Shown one piece after another: positions 31,603 to 60,462 of a DNA stretch of 64,000 nt. A program made the position numbers and the translations under genes. This stretch comes from a virus. Position 1 is the stretch's first letter, and the number at the start of each line of letters is the position of its first letter. Below the pieces are notes generated by a model. It searched no databases. It had not been told where the DNA came from and saw only the letters and a program-made list of their open reading frames with translations. The DNA lies in the IMG/VR virus record IMGVR_UViG_3300037358_000003, positions 37,773-101,772 of that record. One strand, given 5' to 3'.

Positions 31603-31701
31603 GGCTTCCCTCCTGAGAGAAAGGGTCGGTTCGGATAGATCGGTCAGTACCAACGCGCTCTCAGACGCGTCAGTACCAACCGAAATCTTTGTGATTGCAG
31701 T

Positions 31702-32682
31702 TTAGTATGCTGTACTTATGTTGTTGGTGACAGTGCAAACGATGGGACTATATCCAAAAGTCACGCTGTTCGACGTGTTGGCCACGGCGGTGAATCCGAG
31801 GTCAAGCTCAACGTAGTTCTTGCCCTGATTGATGACAGGATCAGTAAGTTGTACCGTGTTCATGGTGTATTGAATGCTGTAACCAGTGAATGGGTCTGTC
31901 AGCGTAAACGCCACAACCTGTTGATCGCGTGTTAGCGCATTGGCCCAGTAGGTCTCGCCTTGCTGAACAATAAATGTGCACTTTCCATCCACGGAAATAG
32001 GTCCACAAAAATTACTCACGGCGCTTTCGGAGCCGAGCGCATAGATTTGGCTCGTACCTCTTTTGATATCGAGTGACCAGTTTTCGACGACGTAGACGGC
32101 TGCGCCACCGATGGACGCAGAACAGTTCCATGCCGGAATCAAGTGCTGCGTAGACGATGGAGTGCTGGACACACTAGCCACAACCGTGGGTTGATTGCAC
32201 TTAAACGAAAAAGTGTTTTCGACAGCAGCATCTGCCGCAAAAGAAACGTTCAATGAATCAAGGCGCGATGCGACCATCTGGTAAGTTGCATCTACGCTAT
32301 CTGAAATGAGCGTATAACTTGGCGGCTGACTGCCAGTATTCGGCTGATTCTGCAAGCCGATCGTGTGCGTGTAAAGTCCACCTCCAACAGATGCTACTGA
32401 GTCATTGGAACCAAGTGCTGCACGAAGGAGATTGGGATACACGTCCGTGTAGGTATATGTCTTGCCGTCGAATTGCGCCATGTAGACGCCAGCAACCTTG
32501 TCGTAGATTGCTACCGGCGATCCGCGGAAGTCCGCGTCATCCAGCCACTTGACGCCTGGCGTCACCTTCGGGCTGTTGATCGGCGTCATGGTGCTGATGC
32601 TCGCAGCTGTCCCATAGGTCGATTCGACGGCCATTCCCCAATATGAGTTGGCCGTCATCAGCGGAAGGACTGTACCTGCCAT
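31702..32682 (-). CDS. major tail (tube) protein
   Basis: 326 aa; GMAVESTYGT N-terminus; lies between terminator-like and chaperone genes. Confidence 0.85.
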   Translation of the reverse strand: MAGTVLPLMTANSYWGMAVESTYGTAASISTMTPINSPKVTPGVKWLDDADFRGSPVAIYDKVAGVYMAQFDGKTYTYTDVYPNLLRAALGSNDSVASVGGGLYTHTIGLQNQPNTGSQPPSYTLISDSVDATYQMVASRLDSLNVSFAADAAVENTFSFKCNQPTVVASVSSTPSSTQHLIPAWNCSASIGGAAVYVVENWSLDIKRGTSQIYALGSESAVSNFCGPISVDGKCTFIVQQGETYWANALTRDQQVVAFTLTDPFTGYSIQYTMNTVQLTDPVINQGKNYVELDLGFTAVANTSNSVTFGYSPIVCTVTNNISTAY

Positions 32683-32751
32683 GATTTCTCCTTAGTTCGT
32701 CAACCGATTCCGGCGACTCAATTTGCCCGGTCGAGCCGGTTCGTTAACGGT

Positions 32752-33399
32752 TTACTTGGGTGATGCTAGGTTTGGATTGCATGTACGACAGACTCGATAG
32801 CCTGTGGACGGACTAATCCATGTGTTCTCTGGCGTGTATTCGTGACCATGAATGCAGTGTGTTTTGGGTGGACGTGCACGTCGAGTCGCCGTTTGTTTAG
32901 CGTGGTATTCTGGATCTTGCCAAACTCTTTTTTGGACTTCTGATCGCAATTCGCTGAATCCTGCTGACATTTCATGTGTCGATGGCTGGTTGTCCATACG
33001 CCGAGCACGAATCTCTGGATCTTGCCAGGACAACCGGATCGACTCACTTCTTTGTGCGAGCATTTCTTCCGTCAAAATGCCGCAACCATCTCCACCTTCA
33101 GTTAGGTTGAGCATGGTTGGTCCACCACATAACCTCATGTTGGCGATCCATTCAATCTCCAGGTATCCTTCTATGCTTTGAGTGCATTCCTCCAACAGTC
33201 GGATCTCTGGGCGTACTCCCTCATTCAAGAGTTTTGCTATCCAGCAATATACAGCCGTCGTGGTGGTGCTTCTACCGTCCAACACTCTACGACCTTCGCT
33301 TAGATGTGCGGCCATACGCTGTTTCAATGTTTGTCGGGTTTTCCCAACGTATCGAATACTGTTGACTCGTGGGTCATACAATCCATATATGCAACTCAC
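32752..33399 (-). CDS. GIY-YIG homing endonuclease
   Basis: CIYGLYDPR..IRYVGKT, NLTEGGDG, KTHCIHGH. Confidence 0.88.
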   Translation of the reverse strand: MSCIYGLYDPRVNSIRYVGKTRQTLKQRMAAHLSEGRRVLDGRSTTTTAVYCWIAKLLNEGVRPEIRLLEECTQSIEGYLEIEWIANMRLCGGPTMLNLTEGGDGCGILTEEMLAQRSESIRLSWQDPEIRARRMDNQPSTHEMSAGFSELRSEVQKRVWQDPEYHAKQTATRRARPPKTHCIHGHEYTPENTWISPSTGYRVCRTCNPNLASPK

Positions 33400-33950
33400 G
33401 TAAACAAATCCTCTACGACGTTCAGATGATAAAGTGACTGAAACAGTGTCACTCCACCATCCAGCGTTTTCGGCACATAGTGTTGCGCCTGAATGTCGAT
33501 GCCCCCGTCAATGCCACCCTCTCCCCATTGAAAGATTGTGCCAGTTCCATTCCCGCCATATTCAGCGTTGTCAGTTCCAGCCGTACGGTTCGCTCGTACG
33601 CGAGCAGTGAACGCGTCGCGAAACTCGTTGTATGCTATCTGCCCGCTGATGGTGTCTGGCAAATCACTCTTGAACACGAACAGAAACGCCCACGTGTACT
33701 GAACAAACTTGTGTCCACCACCCCCGTATGGTGGAGGTGGACCACCTAGTGCGATGCGCTCCTCTTTGTTGTCTGTGCAGAACATGTAGATTGTTCCGCC
33801 GAGACCGCAGCCAGGATAGCTGTTTGTGAATAACTCCGCCTCATCGCTAACCTTGGGTAACGACTGGTACAAGACGCCGAGGTTGGGGATGTTGCTTGCG
33901 TTCGGCTCTAGGTAATCGTAGATCGCTTGACTGACTGTTGCGAGCGGCAT
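33396..33950 (-). CDS. putative tail terminator / head-tail joining protein
   Basis: Size and position upstream of the tail tube gene. Confidence 0.55.
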   Translation of the reverse strand: MPLATVSQAIYDYLEPNASNIPNLGVLYQSLPKVSDEAELFTNSYPGCGLGGTIYMFCTDNKEERIALGGPPPPYGGGGHKFVQYTWAFLFVFKSDLPDTISGQIAYNEFRDAFTARVRANRTAGTDNAEYGGNGTGTIFQWGEGGIDGGIDIQAQHYVPKTLDGGVTLFQSLYHLNVVEDLFT

Positions 33951-33953
33951 GAT

Positions 33954-34883
33954 CTAATATCCGACGTACTGTTGTTTGAACGGCATCAACAAATACTCAG
34001 CCTCAGCCCAATCGCTCCCACTGCCCTGAGAGAATCCAGTCTGTTGCTTCGTTGCAGCACCCATGTCGTCCACCAAGAGTGCGCCACTTCCACGCTGCTT
34101 AATCAGTGCAGTGGTGGCGAGAATCGCCGCTTGCTTAACCGCAGGCGGAAGATTTGTGACCATCACACCCGACGCGTGTGCGTATGCAGTCGTACCTACG
34201 AGCGGCACAGTCGTCGCACCTGGAGTGTAACTGGACGCCACTTGGATTAACTCATCGTTTGGCAAGTCGTAGAGCGTTAGCGTGGTGCCTGGATAGATAC
34301 CCACAACACTGTAGGGGGTGATAGATGTAGCACCTGCCGCAACAGATGCTGTCAACGTCGATACGGGATAGCCATTGACGTATGACCACGTGCACGCGTA
34401 TTGAGTGCACGGTATAACGCCAGCCGAACCAAACCCTCCGAAGCCGCCACTTGACCCAAAGCTGGTCGATCCGCCAAAACTTACGATGAACTCTTGCGGC
34501 TCGATCCATATGTTGCCAGCGGGGGTTACTGATGCCGAGTTAGCAAATCCACCACCTGGTGTGATATATGAGAATGCGTCAATTTCCAATATGGGCCAGT
34601 AGCGAGGATGGACACGCAGAGTGCCATCACGACTTGACCATATGCGTGCGTTCTCAATGTTCTGAGTCGCAGCAAGCGTACCGTACGATCCCATGACGAA
34701 CTGGTCAATCCACGATGATGCTCGACCGATCGTTTCTATGAGTGCCGTAGCGTTTGCTTGTGCACCACCTGGGACAAGATTTGCGGTGTCCATGCTCGTT
34801 GGTGACACAGAGTATTCCGTGGCAGTAATGTAGGGAACGCGATTCGTGTACGAAACGTCGTAGCTGGAGTATGCGATTGTCAT
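33954..34883 (-). CDS. head-to-tail adaptor
   Basis: PYIT..EY, RASSWID, LPPAVKQAAI, LLMPF; start at ATG 34883. Confidence 0.75.
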   Translation of the reverse strand: MTIAYSSYDVSYTNRVPYITATEYSVSPTSMDTANLVPGGAQANATALIETIGRASSWIDQFVMGSYGTLAATQNIENARIWSSRDGTLRVHPRYWPILEIDAFSYITPGGGFANSASVTPAGNIWIEPQEFIVSFGGSTSFGSSGGFGGFGSAGVIPCTQYACTWSYVNGYPVSTLTASVAAGATSITPYSVVGIYPGTTLTLYDLPNDELIQVASSYTPGATTVPLVGTTAYAHASGVMVTNLPPAVKQAAILATTALIKQRGSGALLVDDMGAATKQQTGFSQGSGSDWAEAEYLLMPFKQQYVGY

Positions 34884-35212
34884 CAGTTCACCGCCACTAC
34901 ACCGGAGTACAAAACAGGCACCTCTGGATTGTCCGTAATCTTGACGACTATCAGATACACACCAGCGGTCAACGCCACGACGCCACCAGTGGGACCAACA
35001 AGTACCGCAGCCAAATATGGCGACGTATCCGACTGCCATTCGCCAGTGTAATATGTCGTAGTCGTAGTGGGTATCGCACTATTGGCTTGACTCGTATTGG
35101 AGTATGGTCCAAGAAACGCAAACCGCACGGCATCATTCGTCGGATTTATACCTTGCGAATTAGTAACGGGCACTTCGATGTACTGTGTGCTCGTTGCGTA
35201 GATCGAAAGCAT
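34883..35212 (-). CDS. small virion structural protein
   Basis: LVGP...GVY...KITDNPEVPV motif. Confidence 0.65.
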   Translation of the reverse strand: MLSIYATSTQYIEVPVTNSQGINPTNDAVRFAFLGPYSNTSQANSAIPTTTTTYYTGEWQSDTSPYLAAVLVGPTGGVVALTAGVYLIVVKITDNPEVPVLYSGVVAVN

Positions 35213-35222
35213 TCATCCACCT

Positions 35223-36848: not shown

Positions 36849-36877
36849 CTCGTTACCTCATTATCGGTGGTACCAGA

Positions 36878-38503
36878 TCAGGCTGGGGTGATTTGTACGA
36901 CCGGCGTTCCTGCTGTGATGGTTCCTGACGTTGTGACGGATAAATAGTAGTCAGCGGGGACATATTGGCTGAACGTGATGACGGTAGCCGCGCTGAGTGC
37001 TGGTGATATGGGGTCCGTGGTTGGCGTGGATGTTGGACCAACGCCAGCGGCGACGGAACCACCAACTGCTGCGGAAATGGGGACTGAGATCGTGGCGATA
37101 ACGTCGTACTCAAGCGGACTTTGTTTTGGTGTGCCAAGTGCTAGTGAACCGAACGCTGTTGTGGCTGTGTGGGAGTCCGTGGGTGCGGTGGTTACTGCGC
37201 CGGTGGAGATGCCCGTTGTAGATAGTGTGTACCAGTGTCCAATTCCATCCGCGTATAGTTGAACCGCTTGATTTTGTAAGAGTTCAAGAGATGAGAATCC
37301 GTCAATGGTATCCCCACTCTGAGTGAGTAGGGTGACTGAAGTGCTAGTGGTATTCTTAATCCAGAGCATCAAGTTGGGATCTACAAAAACCTCTGAGAGA
37401 GGAAGTGCCACGCTTGCGGCGCCACCTTGGCACAAATACACTGGACCCTCACTGCCCGTGAGCGTGACTGGGGTGCTCGAAATACCGTCGTATTGAAGAA
37501 GAGTTTGACCAGTAAGTTGAATACCCTGGTGAAATGTCGTTAATGCGCCAACTGTCAGCGTATCACTTATGTCTGCGGTGCCCGTGACCACTATATCAGG
37601 GAGTGCTGCTCCACCAGATTGTGAGCCTGGGGTCCCCAATACTACGGCTCCATCAATCGCCACGCCGGTACCAGAAAACACTAATGAAGTTCCTAGTGCT
37701 ACTGACGCCTCGTCCGCCAAGTTAGTGTAGATCGGGGTTGCGCCCACCACGGGACTAGATGCAAAACTGGAAACGTTCACGCGGCTACCAAATCCAAATT
37801 GAGTGCCTGTAACATTTTCAGCAACCAGAACATTCCAGTACGTAAATATTTCATCAGCGGTATCGTTGTCTGTGGATCGGGTCATGACCCACGGAATTGA
37901 CGAGCCGTTGCCCAGTGCGGTGACAACGTAGATGCCATCATATATATCGGATGCTAGCAAACTTCCGGAGCCGTCGCTATCACACAGAAAAACACGATCA
38001 CCAATCGCCGGATAGCCACCGTCGATAGATAGTACGTGTACGGGCGAATTCTGTGTGATGTAATCACCTACGCCACCAGCGCCAAGCGATGTGTAAGTGT
38101 ACGCATCTACCCCAAATCCCAAGACTTGACTATAGAGCAACACCCACAACACGGGCGCCAGATACAACGGCCCGTTCGTAGCGTAATCAGTAGCGGACGG
38201 ATTATTGCCCCACGTGCTCGTGAGTGCAGTGTGCGATGTTGGGGGCCAGTTCGTTGCGTCTTCGGCGCCACGTTTGATCGTGCCATCTTTGGAACCAGAT
38301 GTGTAGGCGGTGAGATAGACGATCTCAAAATTGCCGGTGCCGGAGTCGAACGAGAGTTTGATGTAGTCGTCGTCGCCAACGATGGTGGCAAAGTTTGGGG
38401 CCACGTCGAATAGGTCGGTAATGGTTTGGGATTGGCCGACTGAGGCTGAGGTGAGGGAGCTGCCGAGGATGCCGGATTGGTTGTTGTATCGCAACTCTGC
38501 CAA
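36878..38503 (-). CDS. virion structural / fibre-like protein
   Basis: EIVY.T...RGAE, GDRVFL...DGIYVVT..W.MTR.TD; mosaic beta-rich domains. Confidence 0.7.
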   Translation of the reverse strand: MAELRYNNQSGILGSSLTSASVGQSQTITDLFDVAPNFATIVGDDDYIKLSFDSGTGNFEIVYLTAYTSGSKDGTIKRGAEDATNWPPTSHTALTSTWGNNPSATDYATNGPLYLAPVLWVLLYSQVLGFGVDAYTYTSLGAGGVGDYITQNSPVHVLSIDGGYPAIGDRVFLCDSDGSGSLLASDIYDGIYVVTALGNGSSIPWVMTRSTDNDTADEIFTYWNVLVAENVTGTQFGFGSRVNVSSFASSPVVGATPIYTNLADEASVALGTSLVFSGTGVAIDGAVVLGTPGSQSGGAALPDIVVTGTADISDTLTVGALTTFHQGIQLTGQTLLQYDGISSTPVTLTGSEGPVYLCQGGAASVALPLSEVFVDPNLMLWIKNTTSTSVTLLTQSGDTIDGFSSLELLQNQAVQLYADGIGHWYTLSTTGISTGAVTTAPTDSHTATTAFGSLALGTPKQSPLEYDVIATISVPISAAVGGSVAAGVGPTSTPTTDPISPALSAATVITFSQYVPADYYLSVTTSGTITAGTPVVQITPA

Positions 38504-38506
38504 CGT

Positions 38507-39430
38507 TCAGCCTCCGGCGACTATTTGCAATTTGAAGACCCAAAGAATTGAATCACCGTTCTCAACATTCAGGGCAGCGAAAACCTGGCGGTCAAACATC
38601 ACCGGCAAAATCTGATATGTGTCGGCATTTACAGGATCGACACCACTCAATGCGCCCGTAGCGGTTGTATACCATCCAGGCACAGAAATGTCGCCAGTAG
38701 TGTTGCTAGTACAGAGTCCCCAGAATGGAGTAGCGGCGGTCAAGTCCTCGAACACTGTTTGCTGTTGCCCAAGAACGGTCGAACTCGACGCCGTAAACGG
38801 CGCCCCAGTGACACTTGCACTCGTTGCAGCGCCGCTGGTGAAGGGTGATCCGAGGGTTGACGATAGGGTCGCCTGCGAGAACAATCCCCATTCTGTTATG
38901 GCCTCACTGCCACTGAATGAAGTTGTTGCCTGCGTGACGTAGGTGGAGACCGACGCCGTGGAGACAAGTGACTGTGTGCCAGTAACTGCGGTCGTTGTGG
39001 TTGGACTCGCAAGAGTCTCTAGAGCGATGTTATTCTGTGATGCTGCTGCTGTACCAGTTCCAACCGCGTGATAATTCGCTTGAGCAATCGTGTTGGTCAG
39101 GGTTCCGCTGGGGGCTGCCCAATTCCAATCGTTCGCTAGTGACAAAACCGCCACCTGGGTGACGACTCCGCTGCCGATGTCTCTAACATCCTTCAGCTTG
39201 CCATCACCGTCACGATGTACGGCCGTCAGATTGGTTAGCAGGTACTCATTCGCCATGTGCGTACTCACACCACGATCCTTCGTGAACATCACGCGCCCCT
39301 TACCGAAGGGAAGGTTGTACGACTTGACGTTGTGTGGCCTGGGCAGTTTCACCGCATCCAGTGTGCCGCGCATACCCATACTTGACTCTTGCATTTGTTG
39401 CTCCTTAGTTGGTGCTCCATAGGTGGGCAC
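38507..39430 (-). CDS. virion structural protein
   Basis: AVGTGT...AITEWGLF...MFDRQVF.ALNV..GDSI, tail-collar-like pattern. Confidence 0.7.
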   Translation of the reverse strand: MPTYGAPTKEQQMQESSMGMRGTLDAVKLPRPHNVKSYNLPFGKGRVMFTKDRGVSTHMANEYLLTNLTAVHRDGDGKLKDVRDIGSGVVTQVAVLSLANDWNWAAPSGTLTNTIAQANYHAVGTGTAAASQNNIALETLASPTTTTAVTGTQSLVSTASVSTYVTQATTSFSGSEAITEWGLFSQATLSSTLGSPFTSGAATSASVTGAPFTASSSTVLGQQQTVFEDLTAATPFWGLCTSNTTGDISVPGWYTTATGALSGVDPVNADTYQILPVMFDRQVFAALNVENGDSILWVFKLQIVAGG

Positions 39431-40037: not shown

Positions 40038-40039
40038 AT

Positions 40040-40504
40040 CTACCCCGCTTTGTACGTACCGTCGTCCTGCTCAAGTGCTTCGGCCTTCTTACGATCCCTG
40101 CGCCGTTTTTCTTTATCACACTTACATTGTTTGCAATACCGCCAACCGTTTGCATACTGTCCATCGTATGGTCCGTGTCCGTGTGGGCACTCCGTCTTGT
40201 CTACGTTGGGATTTGACCTTCGTATATTGCATGGGGCGCAAGATGGTACGAGATTGTCTGGGTGGTTATTGATCTTGTCAAAGTCAAGATGATCTGCTAC
40301 TAAATCAGTACCCCAAGTAACTGAAGTCTCACAGTGATAACACGGGTGTGTTCCTGGTCCTATCGCATCATACAAAATAACGCGATGCTGATAGGCAAAT
40401 CCTCGCAGCGTGGCTACAGGGTGGCCGTGCGCCTTGACCTGAACATATCCAGAATCCTTCTTGATTGTTCCTTCGCCACGTTTGCGTGTGTGCTTGGTTC
40501 CCAT
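40040..40504 (-). CDS. HNH endonuclease
   Basis: YQHR, ADHLDFDKINNHPDNLVPSCAPCN. Confidence 0.88.
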   Translation of the reverse strand: MGTKHTRKRGEGTIKKDSGYVQVKAHGHPVATLRGFAYQHRVILYDAIGPGTHPCYHCETSVTWGTDLVADHLDFDKINNHPDNLVPSCAPCNIRRSNPNVDKTECPHGHGPYDGQYANGWRYCKQCKCDKEKRRRDRKKAEALEQDDGTYKAG

Positions 40505-40521
40505 GTGCCCTATTCTACAAC

Positions 40522-40812
40522 CTATTCAGCACGGTAAGTGCCGTCATCTTGCTCAATATAGATGCAAGCGCCTGGGCAATTTTCAGCAGCTTCCGCTACA
40601 GCATCCGCAAGATCGTCAGTGAAGTATGCGAGTCCTGATGCACCCTTGAGTTTCGGAGCACCGTTGGCATCTCTACCGTCATCAGAGTCATCCCAATTCT
40701 TGACGTAATATAATCCGTCGTCATGCGACATGAACACGGCGGGTGCGATTTCCTCGCACAATCCATCACCCGTACACAAATCTTGATCAATATAGACTCT
40801 GGTTCGCGTCAC
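40522..40812 (-). CDS. actinobacterial-type ferredoxin
   Basis: IDQDLCTGDGLCEEIAPAVF...AAENCPGACI. Confidence 0.88.
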   Translation of the reverse strand: MTRTRVYIDQDLCTGDGLCEEIAPAVFMSHDDGLYYVKNWDDSDDGRDANGAPKLKGASGLAYFTDDLADAVAEAAENCPGACIYIEQDDGTYRAE

Positions 40813-41339
40813 TGGTCACCCTTGAACCACCCAAATTGCACGGCAGTTCTCCGCCGATGATCATTAGCACAACGAACATCGCACTTTTCGATCTCAGTCA
40901 TAATAGCGTCCCATCGCCAACTACCTAAAATGCCAGAAATCTTCGCACGTTTGTTAGACGGATCTCTGTGGTCAAATTCTAAAACGATTATGTCGGATTC
41001 TCCACAATCCACACATGGGTGATCATTTAGATAGTCGATGAGATGTTGACGATTTTTCGTGTACCGTCGCGCTGCGCATTTGCGATTGTCTTCGTTGCAT
41101 TTTTCACCATTGGCAACACACCAGCAATGGTGATTACAAAACCTAGTGTCATTTCTTCTGTCCGATAAGTCTGCACCGCAGGCGATACATGCATGATCAT
41201 CCGGCGGTGTGTTTCTCTTATGTTTTGACAGATACAAATTGCATTCAGCACACCTCGTGGTAACCGTGTCTATAGTACCGTCTGATTCAATGACGATACT
41301 AACGCGCGTAGAGCCACACCGCTTGCACGGTTTTCTCAT
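40809..41339 (-). CDS. HNH endonuclease
   Basis: PCVDCGE.D..VLEFDHRD...EIEKCDVRCANDHRRRT; start at ATG after SD GGAG. Confidence 0.85.
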   Translation of the reverse strand: MRKPCKRCGSTRVSIVIESDGTIDTVTTRCAECNLYLSKHKRNTPPDDHACIACGADLSDRRNDTRFCNHHCWCVANGEKCNEDNRKCAARRYTKNRQHLIDYLNDHPCVDCGESDIIVLEFDHRDPSNKRAKISGILGSWRWDAIMTEIEKCDVRCANDHRRRTAVQFGWFKGDQ

Positions 41340-41556
41340 TTGTTGCTCCAGTCTTGTTCCCTGGAGAGGGTGGGACCGCGGAGGAACAAGCTCCGCAGCC
41401 CCAGATTTCATAGACGCCTTGTTCGCGTCAGACTTTGAACCCGTTATCCCTCAGCCAATCACGCCACGCATGCCATGCGACGATCCCGCCCGCAAGGGCG
41501 AGAAGGCCGACGATGGCAAACGGGGCGAGCATAACGTCAAAGATGCTCATCGAGCA

Positions 41557-43129: not shown

Positions 43130-43185
43130 ATCTACCTATCCTGATTCATTTCGGTGCCGCCCTGTTGGAGTAATTTGATATTCAG

Positions 43186-50129: not shown

Positions 50130-50138
50130 TATGATCCT

Positions 50139-50480: not shown

Positions 50481-50487
50481 GTGGCTC

Positions 50488-51003: not shown

Positions 51004-51035
51004 GTTGGCCGGTTCCTTTGTTTGGGCTGTATGTG

Positions 51036-51623
51036 TTACATGTTGCGTAGCTGATTTGCTGGTGGGTTGCGAATGTATTCAAGAACCCGCACGTCTTCAT
51101 CTGTTGGTGGGAGTCCTTCAATCTCGCGCAAGTAAGCATGACCGACTTTACGTTCTAGGTTCGGATTGCATATTTGACAGAGCAACCCACGCCAACATTC
51201 TGAACACGAGATTTTACGGCCAGGATGCTCGCATCCATGGCGATGGTCAATGTGGAATGCTTCGCTAACGTCTTCCGGACGTACACCACAAATAGGACAA
51301 GCACCACTCTCTATGGCAAGAAGTGCGTCGTAGGTTTCGGGAGGCATGCCGTGCGGCAAAAGAGTGCGATGTCTACGAGATGCCAACACGCACAGATCGC
51401 ATCGACACCCATTACGGTATTTCTGTGGTGACCCGTGAGGCGACCTGCTAGTCTCGTAGCTAGAAGCTCGCACTAGATCCTGTTTATGTGCTGCCGAGCG
51501 ACACTCTTCACAACGACATCCAGCTGAGTACTTTCGTTCTTCGCCATGTGGTGCTGGATTGCACTCAAAACAGAGCTTGTGCGTTCCGCTCGTTTCTCTG
51601 ATTCCACACTCCATACATGTCAT
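51036..51623 (-). CDS. endonuclease VII-family homing nuclease
   Basis: CPIC...HIDH.H...RGLLCQICN; Y..GCRC repeats. Confidence 0.88.
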   Translation of the reverse strand: MTCMECGIRETSGTHKLCFECNPAPHGEERKYSAGCRCEECRSAAHKQDLVRASSYETSRSPHGSPQKYRNGCRCDLCVLASRRHRTLLPHGMPPETYDALLAIESGACPICGVRPEDVSEAFHIDHRHGCEHPGRKISCSECWRGLLCQICNPNLERKVGHAYLREIEGLPPTDEDVRVLEYIRNPPANQLRNM

Positions 51624-51785
51624 CTTCTAATCCCTCCACTAGAGGTCTATGCGAAATGGTCAACGAATGACGGGCTAGTGGTTCCATCGCCCATTGACCA
51701 AGTTCCCGCCGCAGAAGACGATTCTGCGCAATGAACCATTGCGGGAGCCAGTGCTACAGTATAGCACTTAGTTTTTTTCTACTGC

Positions 51786-54700
51786 CTAGCTATCGCTCAA
51801 CGAGGGAGGCGTAGTGCCTATTCCGACCCCCTGAATTCCGGAAATCATTCCGTTCCAGGCCGGGGCGTAGTGGCAAACGAGTTGTTACAGTTGTGTTACA
51901 ACTGGTCACGTCATTTCTGCGTGACTCTTACACTCTCGTGCAAGACCAGACTATATCTTCATCCACTTTCGTGGAGCACCGTACTTAGTCGTTGAACCTT
52001 CCGCAGTGAAGCGGCTCGGCTGCTGATTGTCCATAGCAACTACTTCTTAGAACCGTCACGCACACTTTTTCAAGTCACGTTGTGGTGTAGTTGATTGACT
52101 GGAGTTTCCAGCAATTCTCGGTGTTTGCTTCCGCTCATTGCTGAACGGTGACTCTATTTCTAAAGTGCCAATCTCGAAAGTCGAAGCGTCGTACGTAAAC
52201 TGAACCACGGGCCACTGAACGGCCACGTAATCCTGCGGCAAAACCATGACGCTTGTTTCCGAGACATTGCTGTCAGGAATCGGAAGCGTCTTCTGCCGAA
52301 TCAGCGAGTTTCCCTGGGGAAACCAGGGGTGAACCGTCAACGGAACCTCGCTACCAGTGACCTCATTGAGGATCGAGGTAACAACCGTACCCGTCTTCAC
52401 GCCACCCATCTCGTTCTGACCAATATAAACACGGTAAGCAGAGTTGGCAGCGTTGTTCACGATGGCATTGGAAAGCTGAAGACGGTCGAAACCGTTGATC
52501 CAGACTTCCTCTGGATCGCCCTTCACTGCCTCGTACAGTGAACCAAAAGCCGTCTGGTACTCGGTACCAGGGTTCGTGGTGCTGAACGCAGCGTTGAGGC
52601 GAGTAACGTAACCACCAGAAGCGGCAGTGTTCGTCAGGAGGCCATCGTAGTTATTTGCAACCGCAGACTGATCAGCGCCGCTAGAAGCGACCTCAGGACC
52701 AGAAGCAGGCTGCGACTTGATGTAGCCAACGTTGTACCCGGTACGACCTGAGTACACGAAAGGACCGGTCGAAACCGATCCGACGTACAGGTTGTAACCA
52801 AGGGCGCCGACAACATCGGAACCAACGGTGACCTGAATGGCCTGACCAGTCGCAACAGACACAGAGGCAGCGGCGGTGGCCGGTCCCTGGTGCATGCTGT
52901 AACCGTTCGTGCCCAAAAGGTCACCAGCGTCAGCAGCCACAACAACCCAAGAGGTTGTAGCAAGTGCTGGCGTAGCAACACCAGACGGTGCGACCGATGC
53001 AGAAACGGCAGCAAGAGTGACGGATGCGGGAGTGCCAAGGGCACCGGCATAGCCAGTCTGTGAGCCGCGACCGTAGATCATCAGGCGCTCGTCTAGAAGC
53101 ATGGTCGAATACAAAAGGGCGGTGTTGCTCAGGGATCGAATGTCTTCGACAAGATTGTTACGCGTCCCTGAAACGCGGACCGAGCATTTCTGTCAGTCTC
53201 TGCATGTCTCCATGCAGTTCGGACTATATCTTAATCTGTTTTGTTGTGCTTCGACATATTGCAATACGCATGTGTCGCCTGCACGTTGCTGTACGCATGG
53301 ATACCGCCCCTACTAAGAGGAACGATGTGATCGACATGCAGATAGCCTGGATCGTAGCGGTTTGTGATGGTATCGTCAATTTCCCAGCCACATAGCTGGC
53401 AAATCCAATCATCTAAATCGGCCACAACTTCACGGTCGACTGGACCATCTACCGTCACACCACGTCTACGCAATAAATAAGCCTGAGAATTTGCGTAACT
53501 CTCGCCCGGATGATCTATCCGATATTGGCGAACTCGCTCTCGTTCCTTATCTCTATTGTTGACGTAGTGTTTCCTAGATCGTCGTCTGCTCGCATCTGGA
53601 TCTTTAATCCGTTCCGCAGCAGCGCGGTCTCGTTTCTTTTGACGATTTGTCTCAAGATCGGAGTGGTAGTTGTTTCGACCGCTTTCTAGGTGATCCTCGC
53701 GATTTTCGGCATACCATTTTTTGTTGTATTCTCTGTGGTACGCGAGTCGCTTTTCTCTATCTTTGTACGGCATTGTCAAATCTCTCCTGTCCGAGAGTGT
53801 AGATGGTTGGAGTCAATACGGGGACAGCCGCACCGACCCCAACCAAACCTTTTGTTAAACAGATTCCACGGTGATAGTCTCTGAACCTTCCCCTGTTACC
53901 GGGGCTCGGCTGCTGATTTTCTCTATCATAGCACTTTTCAAACCATCACGCTCGCCATTTGGGGCCACGTTGTGGTGTCTATGCCTACCGAGACGTTCCA
54001 GCAATTCTCGTGGTTATTGCCTGCCTGATCACTCAGACAGCGGACCTCGTTAAAAAGCCCTGGCCTTGGTACTCCAGATTGTTACCCGTTCGACCAACGG
54101 GGCTACGTCATTTCTGCGTAGCTCTGCATGTCGCCATGCAGTTCGGACTATATCTTCACCCGCTATTTGCGGGGCTTCGCGTGTAGTCTCTACGGACTCT
54201 CTGCTTGCGCAGGTTGCCTCGGTATCGTCTCAGGGAGAGTTTCACCGATACAGCGAAGTTTGCAGTCACCTATTGCTAGGCTACAGACCGAATACCAGCC
54301 TGCCATGAAACACTGTCCGACAACGATGTGGTCACGTAATTAAGCGTGACATCGTAACCGGCGTAGCTAATGTACATATTGTTACTCGCTACTATATGTA
54401 TGACCCTTAGTAGCGGCCCGCATCATTTCTGTGCGAGTCTGCATGTCGCCATGCAGATCGGACTATCTCTTAATCTGTAATTTACGTAACGTATTTGTAG
54501 GTATCGCCATCACGAATTTTGCGAATGGAGCTTGTCGGAACGTTATACTTACGTCCGATGGATGCCATTGTCACGCCATCAGGTGCGAATCTGCGGTACG
54601 GTCCATACATCTTGCCGATACCTGCTAGTTCAAAAAACCTCTGAACGGTGTCCTCGTCGGTCATGCCGAGCCGCATTTCTAAGTGCGGTCCACCATCAGT

Positions 54701-55674
54701 ACCCGGTTTTTTCCAACCGATCCAACCTTCACCTTCAAACAATCCGGCCATCCATGCCAGATTTTCTCGTGTCCAATTTTGCGATACCACTGAATTCCCT
54801 CCTGTCAAAGGTGTTAAATAAATGGTTGACGTTAGCGCAGTGACAGCTACGTCAACGCCAACCAAACCGTTATTACAGACTCCGCGTACTTAGTCTCTGA
54901 ACCTTCCTCATAGTGTATCACACCTCAGAGGCTCGGCTGCTGATTTTCTCTATCAATCGCTTTTCAAACATTCACGCACGCCGTTTCCAGCCACGTTGTA
55001 GTGCGATTGCTTAACGAGATGTTCCAGCAATTCTCGCGGTTATTGCCCGTCTATCGCTAGACGGCGACCCCACATAACTGAGGTCCACGAATGTAGCTAA
55101 GCCCACCTGGGCCAGCGTTCGTGGTGGACTCATTGATACCAGGCTGCGTGGTCGTCTGACCACCAGTGCCGGTTCCAGTAAATCCTGATATCACCTTGAA
55201 TCTGCGACTTCCACCCTGTCCCTTTACACGCGGAATGCTGTTACGCAACGGCGTGGGGCGGGGAGTCAGGAGCTTGGCCGGAGCCTCAAGATCGAAGGGA
55301 ATAAGCCCAGTAGCCACAGGGCTAGTAAGCGTCCACTCCTTTGAAAGCACTTCGGAGCGAGCACCGCTCCAAGTGGACTCGGAAACGCTCTTTGCCATTT
55401 CCACATCGTCAAGAGCCTTGCGGACATCACCCGAACGGGTAGTGTTTACGCGAGTTCTCGCAATAGGGAAGGCATTGGCGCGCTCCGTGTCGATTGGGTC
55501 GCCCCACGTCACCTCTCCAGTAATACCAGATACGGTGGATTTGGTCATTTCCTCCACGAACAATTCGTGGCGATCAACCATTTCCGCACGCTCGGTGCTG
55601 GTCAGAGGACGCTTCGGCTCACCCAATCCAGGACCGATGTCATAAAGGGCATCAGCCTTTGGGATTGCATACAT
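51786..55674 (-). CDS. major capsid protein, 5 exons (55674-55081, 54374-54297, 54074-54056, 53149-52163, 51877-51786), about 589 aa
   Basis: Spliced frame is continuous: ...SYIRGP|YISYAG...VSWQA|EYQGQG-F|EDIRSLS...FEIGT-F|CHYAPAWNGMISGIQ...; total 1770 nt; FDLEAPAKLL.PR.TPLRN motif; follows protease and scaffold. Confidence 0.9.
51878..52162 (-). mobile_element. group I intron 4 (285 nt, no ORF)
   Basis: P AATTGCTGGAAA, Q AATCAGCAG, R GTTCAACGACTA, S AAGATATAGTCT; exon ends in U, intron ends in G. Confidence 0.9.
53150..54055 (-). mobile_element. group I intron 3 (906 nt) with HNH ORF
   Basis: P1 GGGCU/GGUCC with U:G; P AATTGCTGGAAC, Q AATCAGCAG, R GTTCAGAGACTA, S AAGATATAGTCC; terminal G. 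Confidence 0.92.
53231..53773 (-). CDS. intron-encoded HNH endonuclease
   Basis: CQLCG...HVDHIVPLSRGG.H..SNVQ..HAYCN..K; lies between R and S (P8 loop). Confidence 0.9.
   Translation of the reverse strand: MPYKDREKRLAYHREYNKKWYAENREDHLESGRNNYHSDLETNRQKKRDRAAAERIKDPDASRRRSRKHYVNNRDKERERVRQYRIDHPGESYANSQAYLLRRRGVTVDGPVDREVVADLDDWICQLCGWEIDDTITNRYDPGYLHVDHIVPLSRGGIHAYSNVQATHAYCNMSKHNKTD
54075..54296 (-). mobile_element. group I intron 2 (222 nt, no ORF)
   Basis: P1 CAGGCU/GGUCUG, P10 GUAUUC/GAGUAC; R GTAGAGACTA, S AAGATATAGTCC; terminal G. Confidence 0.9.
54375..55080 (-). mobile_element. group I intron 1 (706 nt) with LAGLIDADG-like ORF
   Basis: P1 GACCU/GGGUC, P10 AUGUG/UACAU; P/Q/R/S consensus elements; terminal G. 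Confidence 0.92.
54482..54790 (-). CDS. intron-encoded single-motif LAGLIDADG-like protein (short, possibly degenerate)
   Basis: LAWMAGLFEGEGWI...MTD motif; start after SD AGGAGG. Confidence 0.75.
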   Translation of the reverse strand: MVSQNWTRENLAWMAGLFEGEGWIGWKKPGTDGGPHLEMRLGMTDEDTVQRFFELAGIGKMYGPYRRFAPDGVTMASIGRKYNVPTSSIRKIRDGDTYKYVT

Positions 55675-55690
55675 AGAAACCTCTTTTGGT

Positions 55691-57694
55691 TTACGAACCA
55701 ATCCCCGCAATCTTCACTCGCAACGCCTTGGCGCGCTCGTTACATTCGCGACGATAGTTCATGTCTTCATGGGATTTCGCAAGACGCTCATACTTGGCAA
55801 GTTCCAAGTCAAGCGCATCACGCTCAGCACTCTTGTTGATCGCATCCTGTGGACGCGTGCGAACAATCGCACTCGGTGCCGCCATCTTCTCTACGGTAGC
55901 GAGACGTGCGTCACGATCTTCCGCAGACTTCTCCGCAGCCGCAAGTTGCTCTTTCAGACTATCGACCGCAGTAGTTGCCTTTGCGACAGCCTCTTCAATT
56001 GCCTTTGCGACCGCTGCGTTTTCGGCAGCTTCCTTCTTGGCATTCTTCGCAGCCTTGAGTGCCTTCTTGGCAGTCTTGGCGGCTTCGTTTGCTTCGATCT
56101 CTTCGGGCGTCAGTTCAGCCTTGGCAGCGTCGTCAGCGGGTTCCGCAACGGCGTCGTCATCGGCAGCTTCAGCCTCGTCAGCGTCCTCGTCCTCAGCTTT
56201 TACAGCTTCAGCGGACGCCTTGTCCTTCTTCGCCTTCTTAGCGGGCTCCGCAGTGGGAGCGTTGGCCTTGAAAGCCTCAGCGAGAATGCCGACGAGCTTT
56301 TCATCGCGCGCGTCGAGCACCTTCGTAAGCTCGTCAGTTGACATATTCTCAATCTCCTTGGACAGTGCGTCCATGTCTATTTCGTCAGCACTCTTGCTGG
56401 CGTTTTTCTTGGGGTCATCGTCACCGAGTACCCCACCAATGTGATCAGCCAAATCCTTGGCCTTGTCACGTGCCGCAGCGAGTGCTGCAACGGTCTTACC
56501 GGCCAAACGTCGGCCAGCCTTGATTACGACTTCATCATCTTCGTCAGCCAAAGACTTCGCAGCCTCAAGTCCCTCATGGAACGCAAGCTGCGACATCACG
56601 CCGAGCGCATCCGAAACTCCGCACAAAGCCTGAGTGGCTGCGTACGCGTCAAACACGTCGTTGCCTTCGCCCATGGCTACTTCAGTTTGTTCACGGGCGG
56701 CGAACGTGCGGATCAGTTCCGCTGCCGCCATGAGTGCCATGCACGCGTCGGTTGCTGTCTGAGCGTCTACAGCTTCCCACTCTGGGGAGCCAGGGGCGCC
56801 TGGCGCAAGTGTTGGCGTGTCAGCGTCATCGTCGCCAGAAGCGTCGTCAGTAACTTGCGAAGCGGCTGCGGCAAGCGCCGGGTTTGGAGCACTAAACACG
56901 CTTCCATCAGCCTTCGCTGCGTCATCGCTCACCTCAATGTCGAACTTCTTCGCAGCGGCCTTAATGGCGGGCATGGCCTGGTCGCCAAACGGTGACTGCG
57001 ATGCACGCGCTAGTGCGTTGCGAACGTGGGCAGCGTCTTGGATCGGGAAGTGGCGCAGCGAACGTGGCGTGGTCTTTCCGTCAGCGTCGAGCTTGCCGCC
57101 CTTTTCGATATAGGCAAATGCGCTGTCTGGGAGATCGTTCTGGTCGGCGGTGGACTGTGCAGCCTTGTCAACCGTTTCGCGATTCTTGCTGTCGCCCACA
57201 CTGACATTGCCAGCGTCGGCGTCAACAGTGTTGAGATCGTTACCGCCATCGGACTTGCCAGTACCGCCGCAACTATCACATTGCCCCGTGGAATCGGTGC
57301 CCGATCCACCACACGCTGCGCACTTGTCAGCAACGGGGACATCGGCGCCACTTGCGGCCACGCCGGATTCCTTGATTGCAGCGAGTTCAGCAAGTGACTT
57401 TTCAGTGTCGCCGGGCTGTGGCTGTACGCCAGATCCTTGGCACTTCGGACACTTGCGGTGACCGTCCATGATCTTGCCGCTACCCTTGCATGTGGTGCAG
57501 TCGGGGCGCTTGTCGTCGGAAGATTCAGCATCCGTCTTGGCGATCTCTGCGAGCACACCCTCTGTGTCTGTGACGGTTTCACTGCCATCTAGCGACTTGA
57601 GAATAAGCCACTCAGTGCCATTAGCTGGACTTGTCACGGCGTCTACGCGATCAGGGTCGATTTCAAGTAGCTCGGTAATTGCAACATCGGGCAT
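55691..57694 (-). CDS. scaffolding/maturation protein with four CxxCxGxG motifs
   Basis: VDAVTSPANG..LILKS; CTTCKGSG, CPKCQGSG, CAACGGSG, CDSCGGTG; Ala/Lys/Glu-rich coiled-coil C-terminus; directly upstream of the capsid gene. Confidence 0.78.
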   Translation of the reverse strand: MPDVAITELLEIDPDRVDAVTSPANGTEWLILKSLDGSETVTDTEGVLAEIAKTDAESSDDKRPDCTTCKGSGKIMDGHRKCPKCQGSGVQPQPGDTEKSLAELAAIKESGVAASGADVPVADKCAACGGSGTDSTGQCDSCGGTGKSDGGNDLNTVDADAGNVSVGDSKNRETVDKAAQSTADQNDLPDSAFAYIEKGGKLDADGKTTPRSLRHFPIQDAAHVRNALARASQSPFGDQAMPAIKAAAKKFDIEVSDDAAKADGSVFSAPNPALAAAASQVTDDASGDDDADTPTLAPGAPGSPEWEAVDAQTATDACMALMAAAELIRTFAAREQTEVAMGEGNDVFDAYAATQALCGVSDALGVMSQLAFHEGLEAAKSLADEDDEVVIKAGRRLAGKTVAALAAARDKAKDLADHIGGVLGDDDPKKNASKSADEIDMDALSKEIENMSTDELTKVLDARDEKLVGILAEAFKANAPTAEPAKKAKKDKASAEAVKAEDEDADEAEAADDDAVAEPADDAAKAELTPEEIEANEAAKTAKKALKAAKNAKKEAAENAAVAKAIEEAVAKATTAVDSLKEQLAAAEKSAEDRDARLATVEKMAAPSAIVRTRPQDAINKSAERDALDLELAKYERLAKSHEDMNYRRECNERAKALRVKIAGIGS

Positions 57695-58221
57695 TAGTTA
57701 CTCCTAAGTGCAGCCAGGGCTTCTGGCGTAGGCGTCCCGCGCTTAGCGCGGCCTTGGGGACTTAGCCCGTTCAGACGCTTGGACTTGATTAGATCCCAGG
57801 TTGGCGAATCCCACTGAACAGCCATAACCCAGTCTCCGTCTTGTATGGTCTTTGCGATCCCGTCGTCACCTTCGATGACCCAATCAGGACCGCGATGTAT
57901 GCCGCTCTCAACGACGGTGCCGTGTCCCTCAGTGCCGTCCTGATGTTGCAGGCCGATGGAACGCGATTTAGACGTGAACGCCCAGCACGCTTTCTCGACA
58001 GCTGTCCGACCAGCGAAGTCGATATGTCCGTCAGCAGCAACACCCTTGTCGGACTTAGAGTGTGGGTATGCCAAACCAACCGTGACCATCGACTCTTCGA
58101 CGGACTTGAAGATGGCACACGCAGCAACATCATCTGAATCCGCTGGCAATTCCTTGGTAACCGATTCGTCGTCAGGCTCGACCGTAATCTTCAGTCGAAA
58201 GTTCGCACTGGGCATCTTCAC
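57694..58221 (-). CDS. XkdF-like prohead serine protease
   Basis: D.HIDF...VEKACW.F, GLQH, VVES, GDWV, W..IKS...NGLS. Confidence 0.85.
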   Translation of the reverse strand: MKMPSANFRLKITVEPDDESVTKELPADSDDVAACAIFKSVEESMVTVGLAYPHSKSDKGVAADGHIDFAGRTAVEKACWAFTSKSRSIGLQHQDGTEGHGTVVESGIHRGPDWVIEGDDGIAKTIQDGDWVMAVQWDSPTWDLIKSKRLNGLSPQGRAKRGTPTPEALAALRSN

Positions 58222-58482
58222 TCCGGGTCTACTGAAATATGGACGTGATACGCGCCGTCGTGTGAATGCACGCGCAATGACTTGGTGGAGACTTCGCCAG
58301 TGGCGCCATCGTTGCCAGCAAGAATGTCGTCTAGGCCGTCTTTGATGTTTTGCACGACTTCGGCCAGTGTGAGGTCGCCGTCGTTGGCGTCAACTGCGCC
58401 AGTTATATTTACTAGTGAGACGTGACGAATGTCTCCGTGGCAGTTGGGGTAGTCGCCGCAGCCGCAATCGAGACACACGGTG

Positions 58483-58869
58483 TCACGCAATCCGCAACGG
58501 CACGACGCCGAATGGGTCAAGGTTATACACCAAGCTGACGCGGTGATACCCGTCTGCGATATCACTATCAACGCCATGATTGACCACGAGCACAGGACTC
58601 ATCGGCTCGCCTTTAGCGACCTTCAACAAGTTATGCAACACACCAGGATCGTCAATCGGCAATGCATTCAGACCACACGCACGCAGAATGTCGTTGGCAC
58701 GACGCTCGGTAACCTTCGCCTTGCGCAAGTTCGCTACGAGGTGTTGTGTCACGTCAGGGTCGTGCTTCATGGACAGATAGGCAGCTGCGGCGTCGAAGTC
58801 GTGGTCGGCCACGTCCTTGAGCCAGTTGAACACTGGGCGGATTTCAGGCGCACGCTTTTTCTTGCTCAT
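58483..58869 (-). CDS. ParB N-terminal-like protein
   Basis: SPVLV...IADGYHRV. Confidence 0.6.
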   Translation of the reverse strand: MSKKKRAPEIRPVFNWLKDVADHDFDAAAAYLSMKHDPDVTQHLVANLRKAKVTERRANDILRACGLNALPIDDPGVLHNLLKVAKGEPMSPVLVVNHGVDSDIADGYHRVSLVYNLDPFGVVPLRIA

Positions 58870-59240
58870 GAGTTGTCCTTGATCTTGCTACCTTGCGGTA
58901 CGAGGACCAGGGGGATGCCAGCTAAATTTGCACTCTTGGCGTTAACCATTGTGGAGTCAATGAAGCAATGTACGTCATTCGCTACCATCCACGCTGACTT
59001 GTCGTCAGCGATGTCTCCACCAGGATGCGCCATGATGACGAGTTCATCCCAACACTGACCGCAACCAAGCGATGTCAGATAGTCGCACTTCTCTTGCCAG
59101 CGTTGCTGCGTAGCCGTGTCGTCGCCAGTCCCAGTCACGACAATCACTGTATGTCCGCAACTTTTTAAGGCGCTCATAATGGTTTGAAACTGAGCGGGGT
59201 TTGCGTCAATCGTGTTATCTAGGTCCAGTACTGTTTTCAC
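58866..59240 (-). CDS. HAD-like hydrolase
   Basis: LDLDNTI, VVTG, K, FID motifs. Confidence 0.7.
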   Translation of the reverse strand: MKTVLDLDNTIDANPAQFQTIMSALKSCGHTVIVVTGTGDDTATQQRWQEKCDYLTSLGCGQCWDELVIMAHPGGDIADDKSAWMVANDVHCFIDSTMVNAKSANLAGIPLVLVPQGSKIKDNS

Positions 59241-59251
59241 TGCGACCTCAC

Positions 59252-60295
59252 TTATGCAACCAGTACGTCCAATTTAGAGAAGTCACCAGCGTTGACTTCG
59301 TGTTCCCATATGTGAATCACATCGAAGCCGTTATCTCGGTAAAACGCGTCCTTGCGTGCGTCTTTTTCGGGAATGCCTGGCAGCGTGTGCCAGTAATCTC
59401 CGTCAACCTCAATGATTGTCTGACCAACTAATAGATCGGGCGTGAACCTTCCGAACTGCAAATACTCGTCATACAACAAATGGCGCTGGCGGAGTTCTTT
59501 CGCAACAATTCGTTCGATGCTAGATGTTTTGCGACCCATGTAGCATCTGCGAGAACAGTAAATCCTGTAGTCGTTAGATGGCACGACTTCAAATACCGCG
59601 CCGCAGTGGGCGCACGTTTTGACAATCCGCTCAACTCTCGTACCAAAGAACGTGCCGTTCTTGGCTTCCCAATAACATTCTGGACTGCAATATTTGCGAG
59701 GATCTGTTTCGCGAGTTTCGACTTCTAGGCCACACTGTTCGCATGTGACGATTTTGCGCGGCAGTGTATTATTGCCAGGTTTACCTGTTACGCCTTGCGT
59801 GTGTGGCCGTGGCTGTGATCGCTTCTCCGCTAAACACCCATCACAGAACCGACGCTTTGTTGGAAGAACGACATCACACGCTTCGCAGCGTCTCTCAACC
59901 CGCAACGCCTGCGATGCGCATTCTCTGTTGCAATAGGCTCGTCCGTTTGAGTTCTTGCTGAGTTCGCTGATCTTTCGGATCAATGGCGCATCGCAGGTCG
60001 AGCATCGCACCTCTACTGGTGGGTGCAGCGTCCGCAGCGGCTTATCCGCATGCACATCTCCGGTTCGTTGCTTGCGTCTGTAGTGACTATTACACAATCC
60101 ATCGCCATAGCACGGAAGCGGGCAATCATCAACGCTGCAATAATTGCGAACGATCAGTGACCCAATCGGACTATTGTCCCTAACATCACCCGTCAATCGC
60201 CAGCGCTCATAGTGGGTATGGCACCACCCACGGGCGTCAACTGGATTGGGGCAGTCTTCCACGCTACAGACTTTGTCTCTTGACTTTGTTGCCAT
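59252..60295 (-). CDS. zinc-finger repeat protein with C-terminal DUF559/Vsr-like endonuclease
   Basis: CSV..C..C..HY and YCS..C repeats; PD...IEVDGDYWH...D..KD. Confidence 0.82.
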   Translation of the reverse strand: MATKSRDKVCSVEDCPNPVDARGWCHTHYERWRLTGDVRDNSPIGSLIVRNYCSVDDCPLPCYGDGLCNSHYRRKQRTGDVHADKPLRTLHPPVEVRCSTCDAPLIRKISELSKNSNGRAYCNRECASQALRVERRCEACDVVLPTKRRFCDGCLAEKRSQPRPHTQGVTGKPGNNTLPRKIVTCEQCGLEVETRETDPRKYCSPECYWEAKNGTFFGTRVERIVKTCAHCGAVFEVVPSNDYRIYCSRRCYMGRKTSSIERIVAKELRQRHLLYDEYLQFGRFTPDLLVGQTIIEVDGDYWHTLPGIPEKDARKDAFYRDNGFDVIHIWEHEVNAGDFSKLDVLVA

Positions 60296-60462
60296 AATTC
60301 CTCCTGCGAAGAGGTTCCATTGTATCAAACCCTGACTCGCACGAACGCAGTTCGCAGCAACGAACATGCGAGTCAAGAAAATGCCCAGCGGGGGCGATGT
60401 GGTCGTCAGTGCGGGAGGTCACGGCACGACACTGCATCGTGAACCGCAACCGCTGGGCAAAC

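Follow-up and report, generated by a model that had tools for sequence, protein, structure and literature searches.

The genome of an uncultured phage (virus record IMGVR_UViG_3300037358_000003, 101,772 bp, complete, with direct terminal repeats; labelled G000 where a label is needed) carries a recurrent leader RNA of about 80 nt in front of genes for nucleases of the homing-endonuclease types. In this leader, the loop of a long, GU-rich hairpin (hairpin 1, HP1) is the exact complement of the loop of a short second hairpin (hairpin 2, HP2), which holds the Shine-Dalgarno (SD) sequence in its 3' arm. We consider it likely that the leader acts in cis, burying the SD of the nuclease gene in a kissing-loop structure and keeping nuclease translation low. 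The window, i.e. the whole stretch of 64,000 nucleotides that was analysed, comprises bases 37773-101772 of the record. Six leaders (S1-S6) lie within it and two (S7 and S8) outside it, every one on the minus strand. The original prediction had named six such elements; all of them are present on the minus strand, at the positions and with the loop and complement sequences it had listed, and its count of six becomes eight for the whole genome. Coordinates of S1-S6 refer to the window and those of S7 and S8 to the genome; the numbering of L001 is that of the genome, and L002 7173-7862 corresponds to genome 27173-27862.

A kissing-loop fold around the Shine-Dalgarno sequence

HP1 comprises 12-22 base pairs (bp) and a loop of 6-8 nt; its stem has 17-22 pairs in seven of the eight copies and only 12 in S5. 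It is followed, after a linker of up to 22 nt, by HP2, a hairpin of 3-6 pairs in which the 5' arm is a pyrimidine anti-SD tract and the 3' arm is the SD, and a spacer of 3-9 nt separates HP2 from the start codon (Table 1). The anti-SD tract is found in all eight copies, and the HP2 loop matches the HP1 loop over 6-8 bp, hence a loop-loop (kissing) helix. The complement adjoins or overlaps the SD: in five copies its CAG end lies directly 5' of GAGG, so that the loop-loop helix and the HP2 stem each pair part of an extended SD, AGGAGG, and in S5 the SD (GGAG) falls within the 3' arm of HP2. Because the complement of the HP1 loop itself sits in the loop of a second hairpin, the fold is an intramolecular kissing complex and not a plain H-type pseudoknot, in which a hairpin loop would pair with a single strand. 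The pseudoknot originally proposed was correct in that the loop pairs with bases at the SD, but the partner is the loop of an anti-SD/SD hairpin, which had been seen at S5 only.

RNAfold predicts a strong hairpin at each of the six window sites, with z between -2.3 and -4.1 relative to dinucleotide shuffles (S3 -4.1, S5 -3.9, S6 -3.9). The energy of HP1 ranges from -23 to -30 kcal/mol. HP2 alone yields -1.2 to -8.6 kcal/mol, to which the loop-loop duplex contributes -6.3 to -10.2 kcal/mol (7 bp and -8.8 kcal/mol in S1, 7 bp and -9.0 kcal/mol in S4, 8 bp and -9.8 kcal/mol in S5), these kissing energies being duplex-energy estimates, with folding restricted to nested pairs. Each HP1 contains two to six G-U pairs, and in eight of eight copies the sense strand is more stable than its complement by 7-11 kcal/mol; in S1, for instance, HP1 has 17 pairs, four of them G-U, and reaches -25.8 kcal/mol on the sense strand versus -17.1 on the antisense strand. 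The G-U pairs and this asymmetry indicate that selection acts on this structure as RNA, and on the coding strand.

Two descriptor scans were run over the whole genome. S7 and S8 were found by both. When an HP1 energy of -22 kcal/mol or lower, a 6-nt Watson-Crick loop complement, an adjacent SD and a start codon are required, the genome has 8 matches, whereas twelve dinucleotide shuffles of it have 0.25 on average and never more than 1. Further copies were detected neither by the whole-genome descriptor scan nor by covariance models applied to 84 kb with filters off. A candidate ninth copy at genome 31616-31708 (model R3, E 0.56) was rejected, as it does not fold.

Almost every copy has a loop pair of its own, and yet the pairing is kept, in agreement with the covariation that had been claimed for the window; self-complementarity was seen in no loop. 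We compared all loops of 14 leaders, namely the eight of this phage and those of a second lineage (G002 and its kin) described in the last section. All 14 cognate loop pairs form 6-8 contiguous Watson-Crick bp. Non-cognate loop pairs form 3.1 bp on average, and of their 182 combinations no more than 4 attain 6 bp, two of these four representing the homologous pair S6/S8. In S2 and S3, which are homologous leaders in paralogous introns, 6 of 28 pairs have changed on both sides (four in HP1, one in the kissing helix and one in HP2); 98% of the cells are paired, and when the partner is slid by 1-3 columns this value falls to 37-48%, with no compensatory change left.

Covariance models were built iteratively from nested pairs only, the kissing pairs being left out. 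The model derived from S2 and S3 alone (R1) finds S6 (26.7 bits, E 6e-5); the next model finds S8 (E 2e-4) and S7 (E 6e-4) and, weakly, S1 and S4, the weak match of model R2 to S4 lying at 51623-51706; and model R3 finds S1 at 60292-60382 (18.2 bits, E 0.03) and S5 at E 9, both at the correct positions. The alignment of five leaders was produced by a model blind to the kissing helix; in it, the columns of that helix are 100% paired, with compensatory changes in 4 of its 6 pairs. Over the whole structure, compensatory changes affect 20 of 28 pairs, a number equalled by 0 of 500 shuffles, the nested part of this alignment being fitted to the model and the kissing helix being the sole unbiased test.

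The nuclease genes, their setting and their relatives

All eight genes behind the leaders encode homing-endonuclease types: HNH, endonuclease VII (EndoVII), GIY-YIG, DUF559-like and LAGLIDADG-like. The diversity of families had been predicted for the window and is upheld, with weak Pfam support for S1 and S2. The S1 product, a zinc-ribbon protein, matches DUF559 and MTES_1575 in its Vsr-like C-terminus at E ~1e-3, under the curated cut-offs, and phrog_1271 ("HNH endonuclease") at E 2.5e-28. The S2 open reading frame (ORF) matches LAGLIDADG_3 weakly (E 0.038, or E 0.006 in a six-frame search) and phrog_5046, a PHROG family of the "HNH endonuclease" kind, at E 7e-9. The N-terminal 107 amino acids (aa) of the S6 protein are 40% identical to the GIY-YIG protein of S8. 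According to the whole-genome descriptor scan and the model searches of 84 kb, the leader precedes 8 of the 10 separately translated nuclease genes of the genome and none of the other genes. A LAGLIDADG_3 domain at genome 15583-15750 (minus strand, E 5.9e-8) lies inside a frame of 927 codons and has neither a start nor a leader of its own; it probably represents an intein that carries a homing-endonuclease domain and is lodged in a large phage protein.

The phage genome has a GC content of 54%. No cultured phage matched 22 kb of the window by megablast, and an Lsr2-like domain found in one of the nucleases hints at an actinobacterial host. The structural-gene block comprises a MuF-like gene, a tail-tube gene and a gene split by four group I introns, which we call the capsid gene; a Pfam search of its exons returned no family, and its identity is putative. 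Six leader copies reside within this block, their sites including those after the MuF-like gene (S1), within introns of the putative capsid gene (S2 and S3), after that gene (S4) and after the tail-tube gene (S6). In introns 1 and 3 the leader and the ORF fill the P8 loop, HP1 starting 5-8 nt past the 5' strand of P8, whereas P8 is short and plain in introns 2 and 4, which lack ORFs. Accordingly, the leader is part of the cassette inserted with the ORF and not of the ribozyme. Some leaders are mosaic: S2 and S3 have a common HP1 in front of different nuclease families, and S6 resembles S7 in the base of its stem and S8 in its loop, HP2 and N-terminal codons.

Table 1. Positions of the leaders and of the genes that they precede, with the carriers of the second lineage. 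Window numbering applies to S1-S6 and genome numbering to S7 and S8; HP2 is given as 5' arm / loop / 3' arm.
Feature	Position	Strand	Description
Leader S1	60296-60378	-	HP1 60378-60330, loop CUGCGAA 60357-60351; HP2 CCUC / UUCGCAG / GAGG 60314-60300; AUG 60295
Gene S1	59252-60295	-	347 aa; zinc-ribbon repeats and weak DUF559/Vsr-like C-terminus
Leader S2	54791-54864	-	P8 loop of putative capsid intron 1; HP1 54864-54823, loop CUGUCA 54846-54841; HP2 CCUU / UGACAG / GAGG 54811-54798; GUG 54790
Gene S2	54482-54790	-	Intron-1 ORF, 102 aa, GUG start; LAGLIDADG-like
Leader S3	53774-53849	-	P8 loop of putative capsid intron 3; HP1 53849-53801, loop CUGUCC 53827-53822; HP2 CUCUC / GGACAG / GAGAG 53797-53782; AUG 53773
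Gene S3	53231-53773	-	Intron-3 HNH endonuclease, 180 aa; PF01844 HNH, E 6.6e-12
Leader S4	51624-51709	-	Directly after putative capsid gene; HP1 51709-51651, loop CCACUAG 51681-51675; HP2 CCU / CUAGUGG / AGG 51645-51633; AUG 51623
Gene S4	51036-51623	-	EndoVII-type, 195 aa; PF02945, E 1e-9 and 2.4e-11
Leader S5	41340-41403	-	HP1 41403-41371, loop CUUGUUCC 41390-41383; HP2 CUCCAG / GGAACAAG-A / CUGGAG 41366-41346; AUG 41339
Gene S5	40809-41339	-	HNH endonuclease, 176 aa; phrog_2255 "HNH endonuclease" E 5e-23; Pfam: weak zinc ribbons only
Leader S6	31603-31688	-	After tail-tube gene; HP1 31688-31637, loop CUGAGAG 31664-31658; HP2 CCCUU / CUCUCAG / GAGGG 31625-31608; AUG 31602
Gene S6	30673-31602	-	309 aa; GIY-YIG-like N-terminus and HNH_3 PF13392, E 1.8e-8
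Leader S7	genome 9532-9451	-	Loop CCCGAUAA; gene GIY-YIG PF01541 + NUMOD3 (Pfam)
Leader S8	genome 13795-13715	-	Loop CUGAGAA; gene GIY-YIG PF01541 (Pfam)
Second-lineage leaders			L159; L160, two copies; G002 (60.6-kb record), four copies

Two of these sites show additional small hairpins. At S5, and at no other copy, a hairpin of the sequence GACGC-GAACAAG-GCGUC lies 5' of HP1 (window 41413-41429, minus strand). Its loop, GAACAAG, repeats the core of the HP2 loop and thus provides a second possible partner for the HP1 loop of S5, perhaps a decoy or a switch. The 5' arm of this extra hairpin runs into the stop codon (TGA, 41430-41428) of a small ORF lying upstream, and the reverse strand of the hairpin was scored as a descriptor match at 41385. 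After the S6 nuclease, an ordinary gene of 106 aa (start at 30620) has an anti-SD/SD hairpin of its own, CCCCU-GAAACAA-AGGAGGG (window 30621-30655, minus strand), without an upstream kissing partner, and a similar sequence precedes the homologues of this gene in the related phage G001 and in L092.

The survey revealed three relatives of this phage, namely G001 (86 kb) and two contigs of 4 kb and 9 kb, and the leader occurs in none of them. At the tail-tube site L092 has neither a nuclease nor a leader; a long imperfect hairpin follows its tail-tube gene (2505-2560, plus strand), unrelated in sequence to HP1 of S6 and with no loop complement downstream. The closest homologues of the S6 protein in the protein collection are P0002 and P0003, and a scan of genome contigs for P0002 gave no match. 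Homologues of the nucleases behind S3, S4, S6 and S7 were scanned at about 220 loci, and the motif was found only in the lineage of G002, L159 and L160. It was not found at the EndoVII genes of Mycobacterium phage Konstantine, Gordonia phage Mollymur and Klebsiella phage KLB7, and seg43 of Aeromonas phage 25, noted for an "unusual hairpin" (PMC2988022), has a hairpin adjoining the SD with no loop complement.

Proposed translational damping and its alternatives

We propose that during transcription HP1 would fold first and present its loop of 6-8 nt, that HP2 would form next, its pyrimidine anti-SD tract pairing with the purines of the SD, and that the whole HP2 loop would then pair with the HP1 loop in a kissing complex of the TAR-TAR* or RNA I-RNA II type. 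The SD would thereby be fully base-paired, placed where the loop-loop helix meets the HP2 stem. Given that HP2 is weak and that the kissing helix adds to its energy, HP1 may be seen as a clamp that would turn a leaky SD hairpin into a tight lock. The outcome would be low, damped translation of the nucleases, both from transcripts of the structural-gene block and from within the introns of the putative capsid gene, and in the intron copies the leader may also shield splicing from ribosome traffic. In agreement with an occluded ribosome-binding site (RBS), the probability that the SD is unpaired in nested-only folding is 0.17 for leader genes versus 0.43 for 71 other genes with a good SD, the latter called with a crude ORF picker (Mann-Whitney p = 0.005).

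Several points weigh against damping. Translational repression is inferred from the geometry of the leader, and the energy of the kissing helix is an estimate from duplex energies. The SD of one leader gene has an accessibility of 0.59 in nested folding. HP1 is far longer than the presentation of a loop needs, which hints at a second role, and a mechanism of relief was not found, the linkers containing no promoter consensus. Two HNH genes of the same genome have no leader: one at window 40040-40504 (minus strand; phrog_9443, E 4.5e-27), two genes downstream of the S5 gene, and one at genome 27173-27862 (minus strand; PF01844, E 2.6e-6). In G001, the homologue of the S6 nuclease (62% identical, at the same insertion site) directly follows the stop codon of the tube gene, again without a leader. 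The leader is therefore not required for carrying such a gene.

An alternative that we regard as doubtful, while ranking it above the others, is that the leader is a regulated switch and not a constant damper, the lock being opened at a set time either by cleavage or unwinding of HP1 (e.g. by RNase III acting on the stem of 17-22 bp or on a coaxial helix of HP1, kissing helix and HP2) or by a competing partner of the HP1 loop. It would account for the excess length of HP1 in seven of the eight copies and for the third hairpin of S5, whose loop duplicates that of HP2 and could compete for HP1, and a precedent exists in the nuclease genes of T-even phages, which use timed relief of an RBS hairpin (PMC2988022). 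On the other hand, the HP1 stems of S5 (12 pairs) and of the G002 lineage (13-14 pairs) are short for RNase III, the decoy hairpin occurs at S5 alone, no trans factor has been identified, and no sigma-70-type promoter consensus was found at or near any leader; the linkers have no motif in common, and at S3 and S5 they leave no room for a promoter.

It is improbable that HP1 is an mRNA-end element, i.e. a 3' stabilizer or processing site of a highly expressed upstream gene, with the pairing of the SD as a secondary adaptation. S1, S4 and S6 do follow the MuF-like, putative capsid and tail-tube genes, and L092, with no nuclease after its tube gene, still has a long imperfect hairpin there. However, that hairpin differs from HP1 of S6 in sequence and in lacking a loop complement, S2 and S3 are situated in P8 loops of introns, where no gene ends, and the leader tracks the nuclease genes: S7 and S8 lie elsewhere, and in G001 the tube gene is followed by a nuclease without a hairpin. 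We attach even less weight to the idea that HP1 is a terminator or insulator that blocks read-through into the nuclease gene, a hairpin without a U-run as proposed for Actinobacteria. A stable HP1 directly upstream of the gene would suit this role, but no T-run follows any HP1, a terminator scan found no terminator-like site at any leader, and the exact loop complement and the anti-SD tract would be left unexplained. For S2 and S3 such a role is excluded, since both lie inside the putative capsid gene, whose downstream exons must be transcribed, and termination would abolish capsid synthesis. Finally, we see almost no room for a signal in the DNA, be it a cruciform, a nuclease target or a recombination site, or for mere coincidence, in spite of the position of the elements at the borders of mobile nuclease cassettes: the strand asymmetry in eight of eight copies and the strand-specific G-U pairs exclude the former, and the pairing partner adjoining the SD, the compensatory changes and the ratio of 8 matches to 0.25 in shuffles contradict both.

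Beyond damping as such, we can entertain, as a speculation that we would not rate highly, that the leader is a portable, genome-specific taming module, whose lineage-own style is imposed on, or exchanged among, unrelated nuclease families, whose loop pair is private to each copy as a guard against cross-pairing, and whose lock could be released when required, through HP1 cleavage or a decoy like that of S5. If so, the leader would be a true switch that times homing and not just a damper.

Homing endonucleases are the commonest selfish genes of phages, and to our knowledge their control is understood for a few T-even cases only. Kissing complexes with loops of 6-7 nt, in which every base is paired and the helices stack quasi-continuously, are familiar from ColE1 RNA I-RNA II and HIV-1 TAR-TAR*; these form between two molecules, in antisense control of replication or in in vitro models, whereas the complex described here forms within one mRNA and buries the SD. 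In T-even phages, RBS-sequestering hairpins control I-TevI, I-TevII, I-TevIII, segB and mobE of Aeh1, and the leader of I-TevI protects splicing from ribosomes, a late promoter giving timed relief (PMC2988022). In both cases an RNA structure acting in cis pairs the SD 5' of free-standing as well as intron-borne nuclease genes on long polycistronic transcripts, and for our leader too the rationale would be to limit the output of nuclease and to keep ribosomes out of the intron. However, the T-even structure is a single hairpin that pairs the RBS directly and is relieved by a late promoter inside it, whereas in our leader a short, weak SD hairpin is clamped through a loop-loop helix to a separate long hairpin, the loop pair varies between copies, and no match to a sigma-70-type promoter is present, though the late consensus of this phage may differ.

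Two riboswitches are also comparable. In the cobalamin riboswitch, the L5-L13 kissing loop likewise joins an upstream hairpin to an RBS-bearing hairpin and stabilizes the RBS-occluded state, but it is itself stabilized by a ligand bound to a large conserved aptamer (PMC5028336). The leaders gave no Rfam match to this aptamer, HP1 is a plain hairpin, and since the loops are fully complementary over 6-8 bp, a ligand should not be needed. The guanidine-II (mini-ykkC) riboswitch also has two small leader hairpins that kiss by their loops next to the SD, but in that RNA the tetraloops are of the conserved ACGR type, guanidinium is required and expression is switched ON (PMC9300104), whereas the loops considered here are of 6-8 nt, show no conserved ACGR and pair by plain Watson-Crick complementarity. 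The comparison with Rfam that the original prediction had called for revealed no nuclease-associated family matching the leaders: with Rfam 15, the group I introns alone score at or above the gathering threshold, relaxed searches (E <= 10 for the sites, E <= 5 for the second lineage) add no relevant family, and the model of the int-alpA RNA motif (RF02996) matches neither G000 nor G002 at E <= 10. A kissing loop or pseudoknot in the leader of a homing endonuclease is not described in the papers covered by our full-text literature search.

If the proposed function is correct, a second, structurally distinct solution to the control of nuclease genes exists beside the T-even hairpins: a kissing-loop lock on the RBS, used eight times in one genome for five nuclease families and recurring in an unrelated lineage. 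Leaders of about 80 nt with natural compensatory variants offer a small test system for the tuning of translation by loop-loop pairing, and with a loop pair of its own in each copy they may be a set of naturally orthogonal translational locks. The leader can also serve as an annotation signature for nuclease cassettes in uncultured phages.

The second lineage

G002 and its kin contain six copies of the two-hairpin architecture in front of EndoVII/HNH genes. In G002 the descriptor scan gives 4 matches, compared with 0.3 in 20 shuffles. This genome has three weak protein matches with our phage, as opposed to 45 for G001, and to judge from its sequence it is an unrelated phage lineage; a megablast search of 20 kb of it against cultured phages returned no match. 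Its leaders have a style of their own, with an HP1 of 13-14 pairs and a UU bulge, a linker of 0-6 nt and an extra small hairpin upstream. Leaders C1 and C3 have identical HP1 stems and different loops, each with its own matching complement, and C4 is one compensatory loop change apart from the leader of L159. The covariance model of G000 does not detect the G002 leaders, which indicates that the two sets are alike in architecture and not in sequence. A MAFFT alignment of the G002-lineage leaders did not reach the structural register, and a protein alignment of four EndoVII genes was too divergent for use in a scan.

Some minor features of these genomes may be mentioned. The small upstream hairpins at L247 13232-13255 (minus strand), L247 6835-6858 (minus strand) and L159 1423-1442 (plus strand) have a common loop, CUUAGCGG, and no Rfam match. 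A fifth EndoVII gene of G002 is preceded by an HP1-like hairpin (G002 36886-36992, i.e. L246 16886-16992, minus strand) with no clean loop complement at the SD (CCUAGGAG), and this site may be a degenerate or variant leader. The nuclease gene behind leader C1 of G002 (L247 12750-13191, minus strand) is frameshifted, an HNH part of 85-89 aa being followed by a separate AP2-like frame, and it has the appearance of a homing-endonuclease gene in decay that has retained its leader. S7 (genome 9499-9510, minus strand) and leader A of L160 (573-584, plus strand) are identical over the uppermost 12 nt of HP1, which comprise the loop (GAGUGCCCGAUA), in front of different nuclease families (GIY-YIG and EndoVII, respectively), an identity that by a rough estimate is borderline beyond chance.

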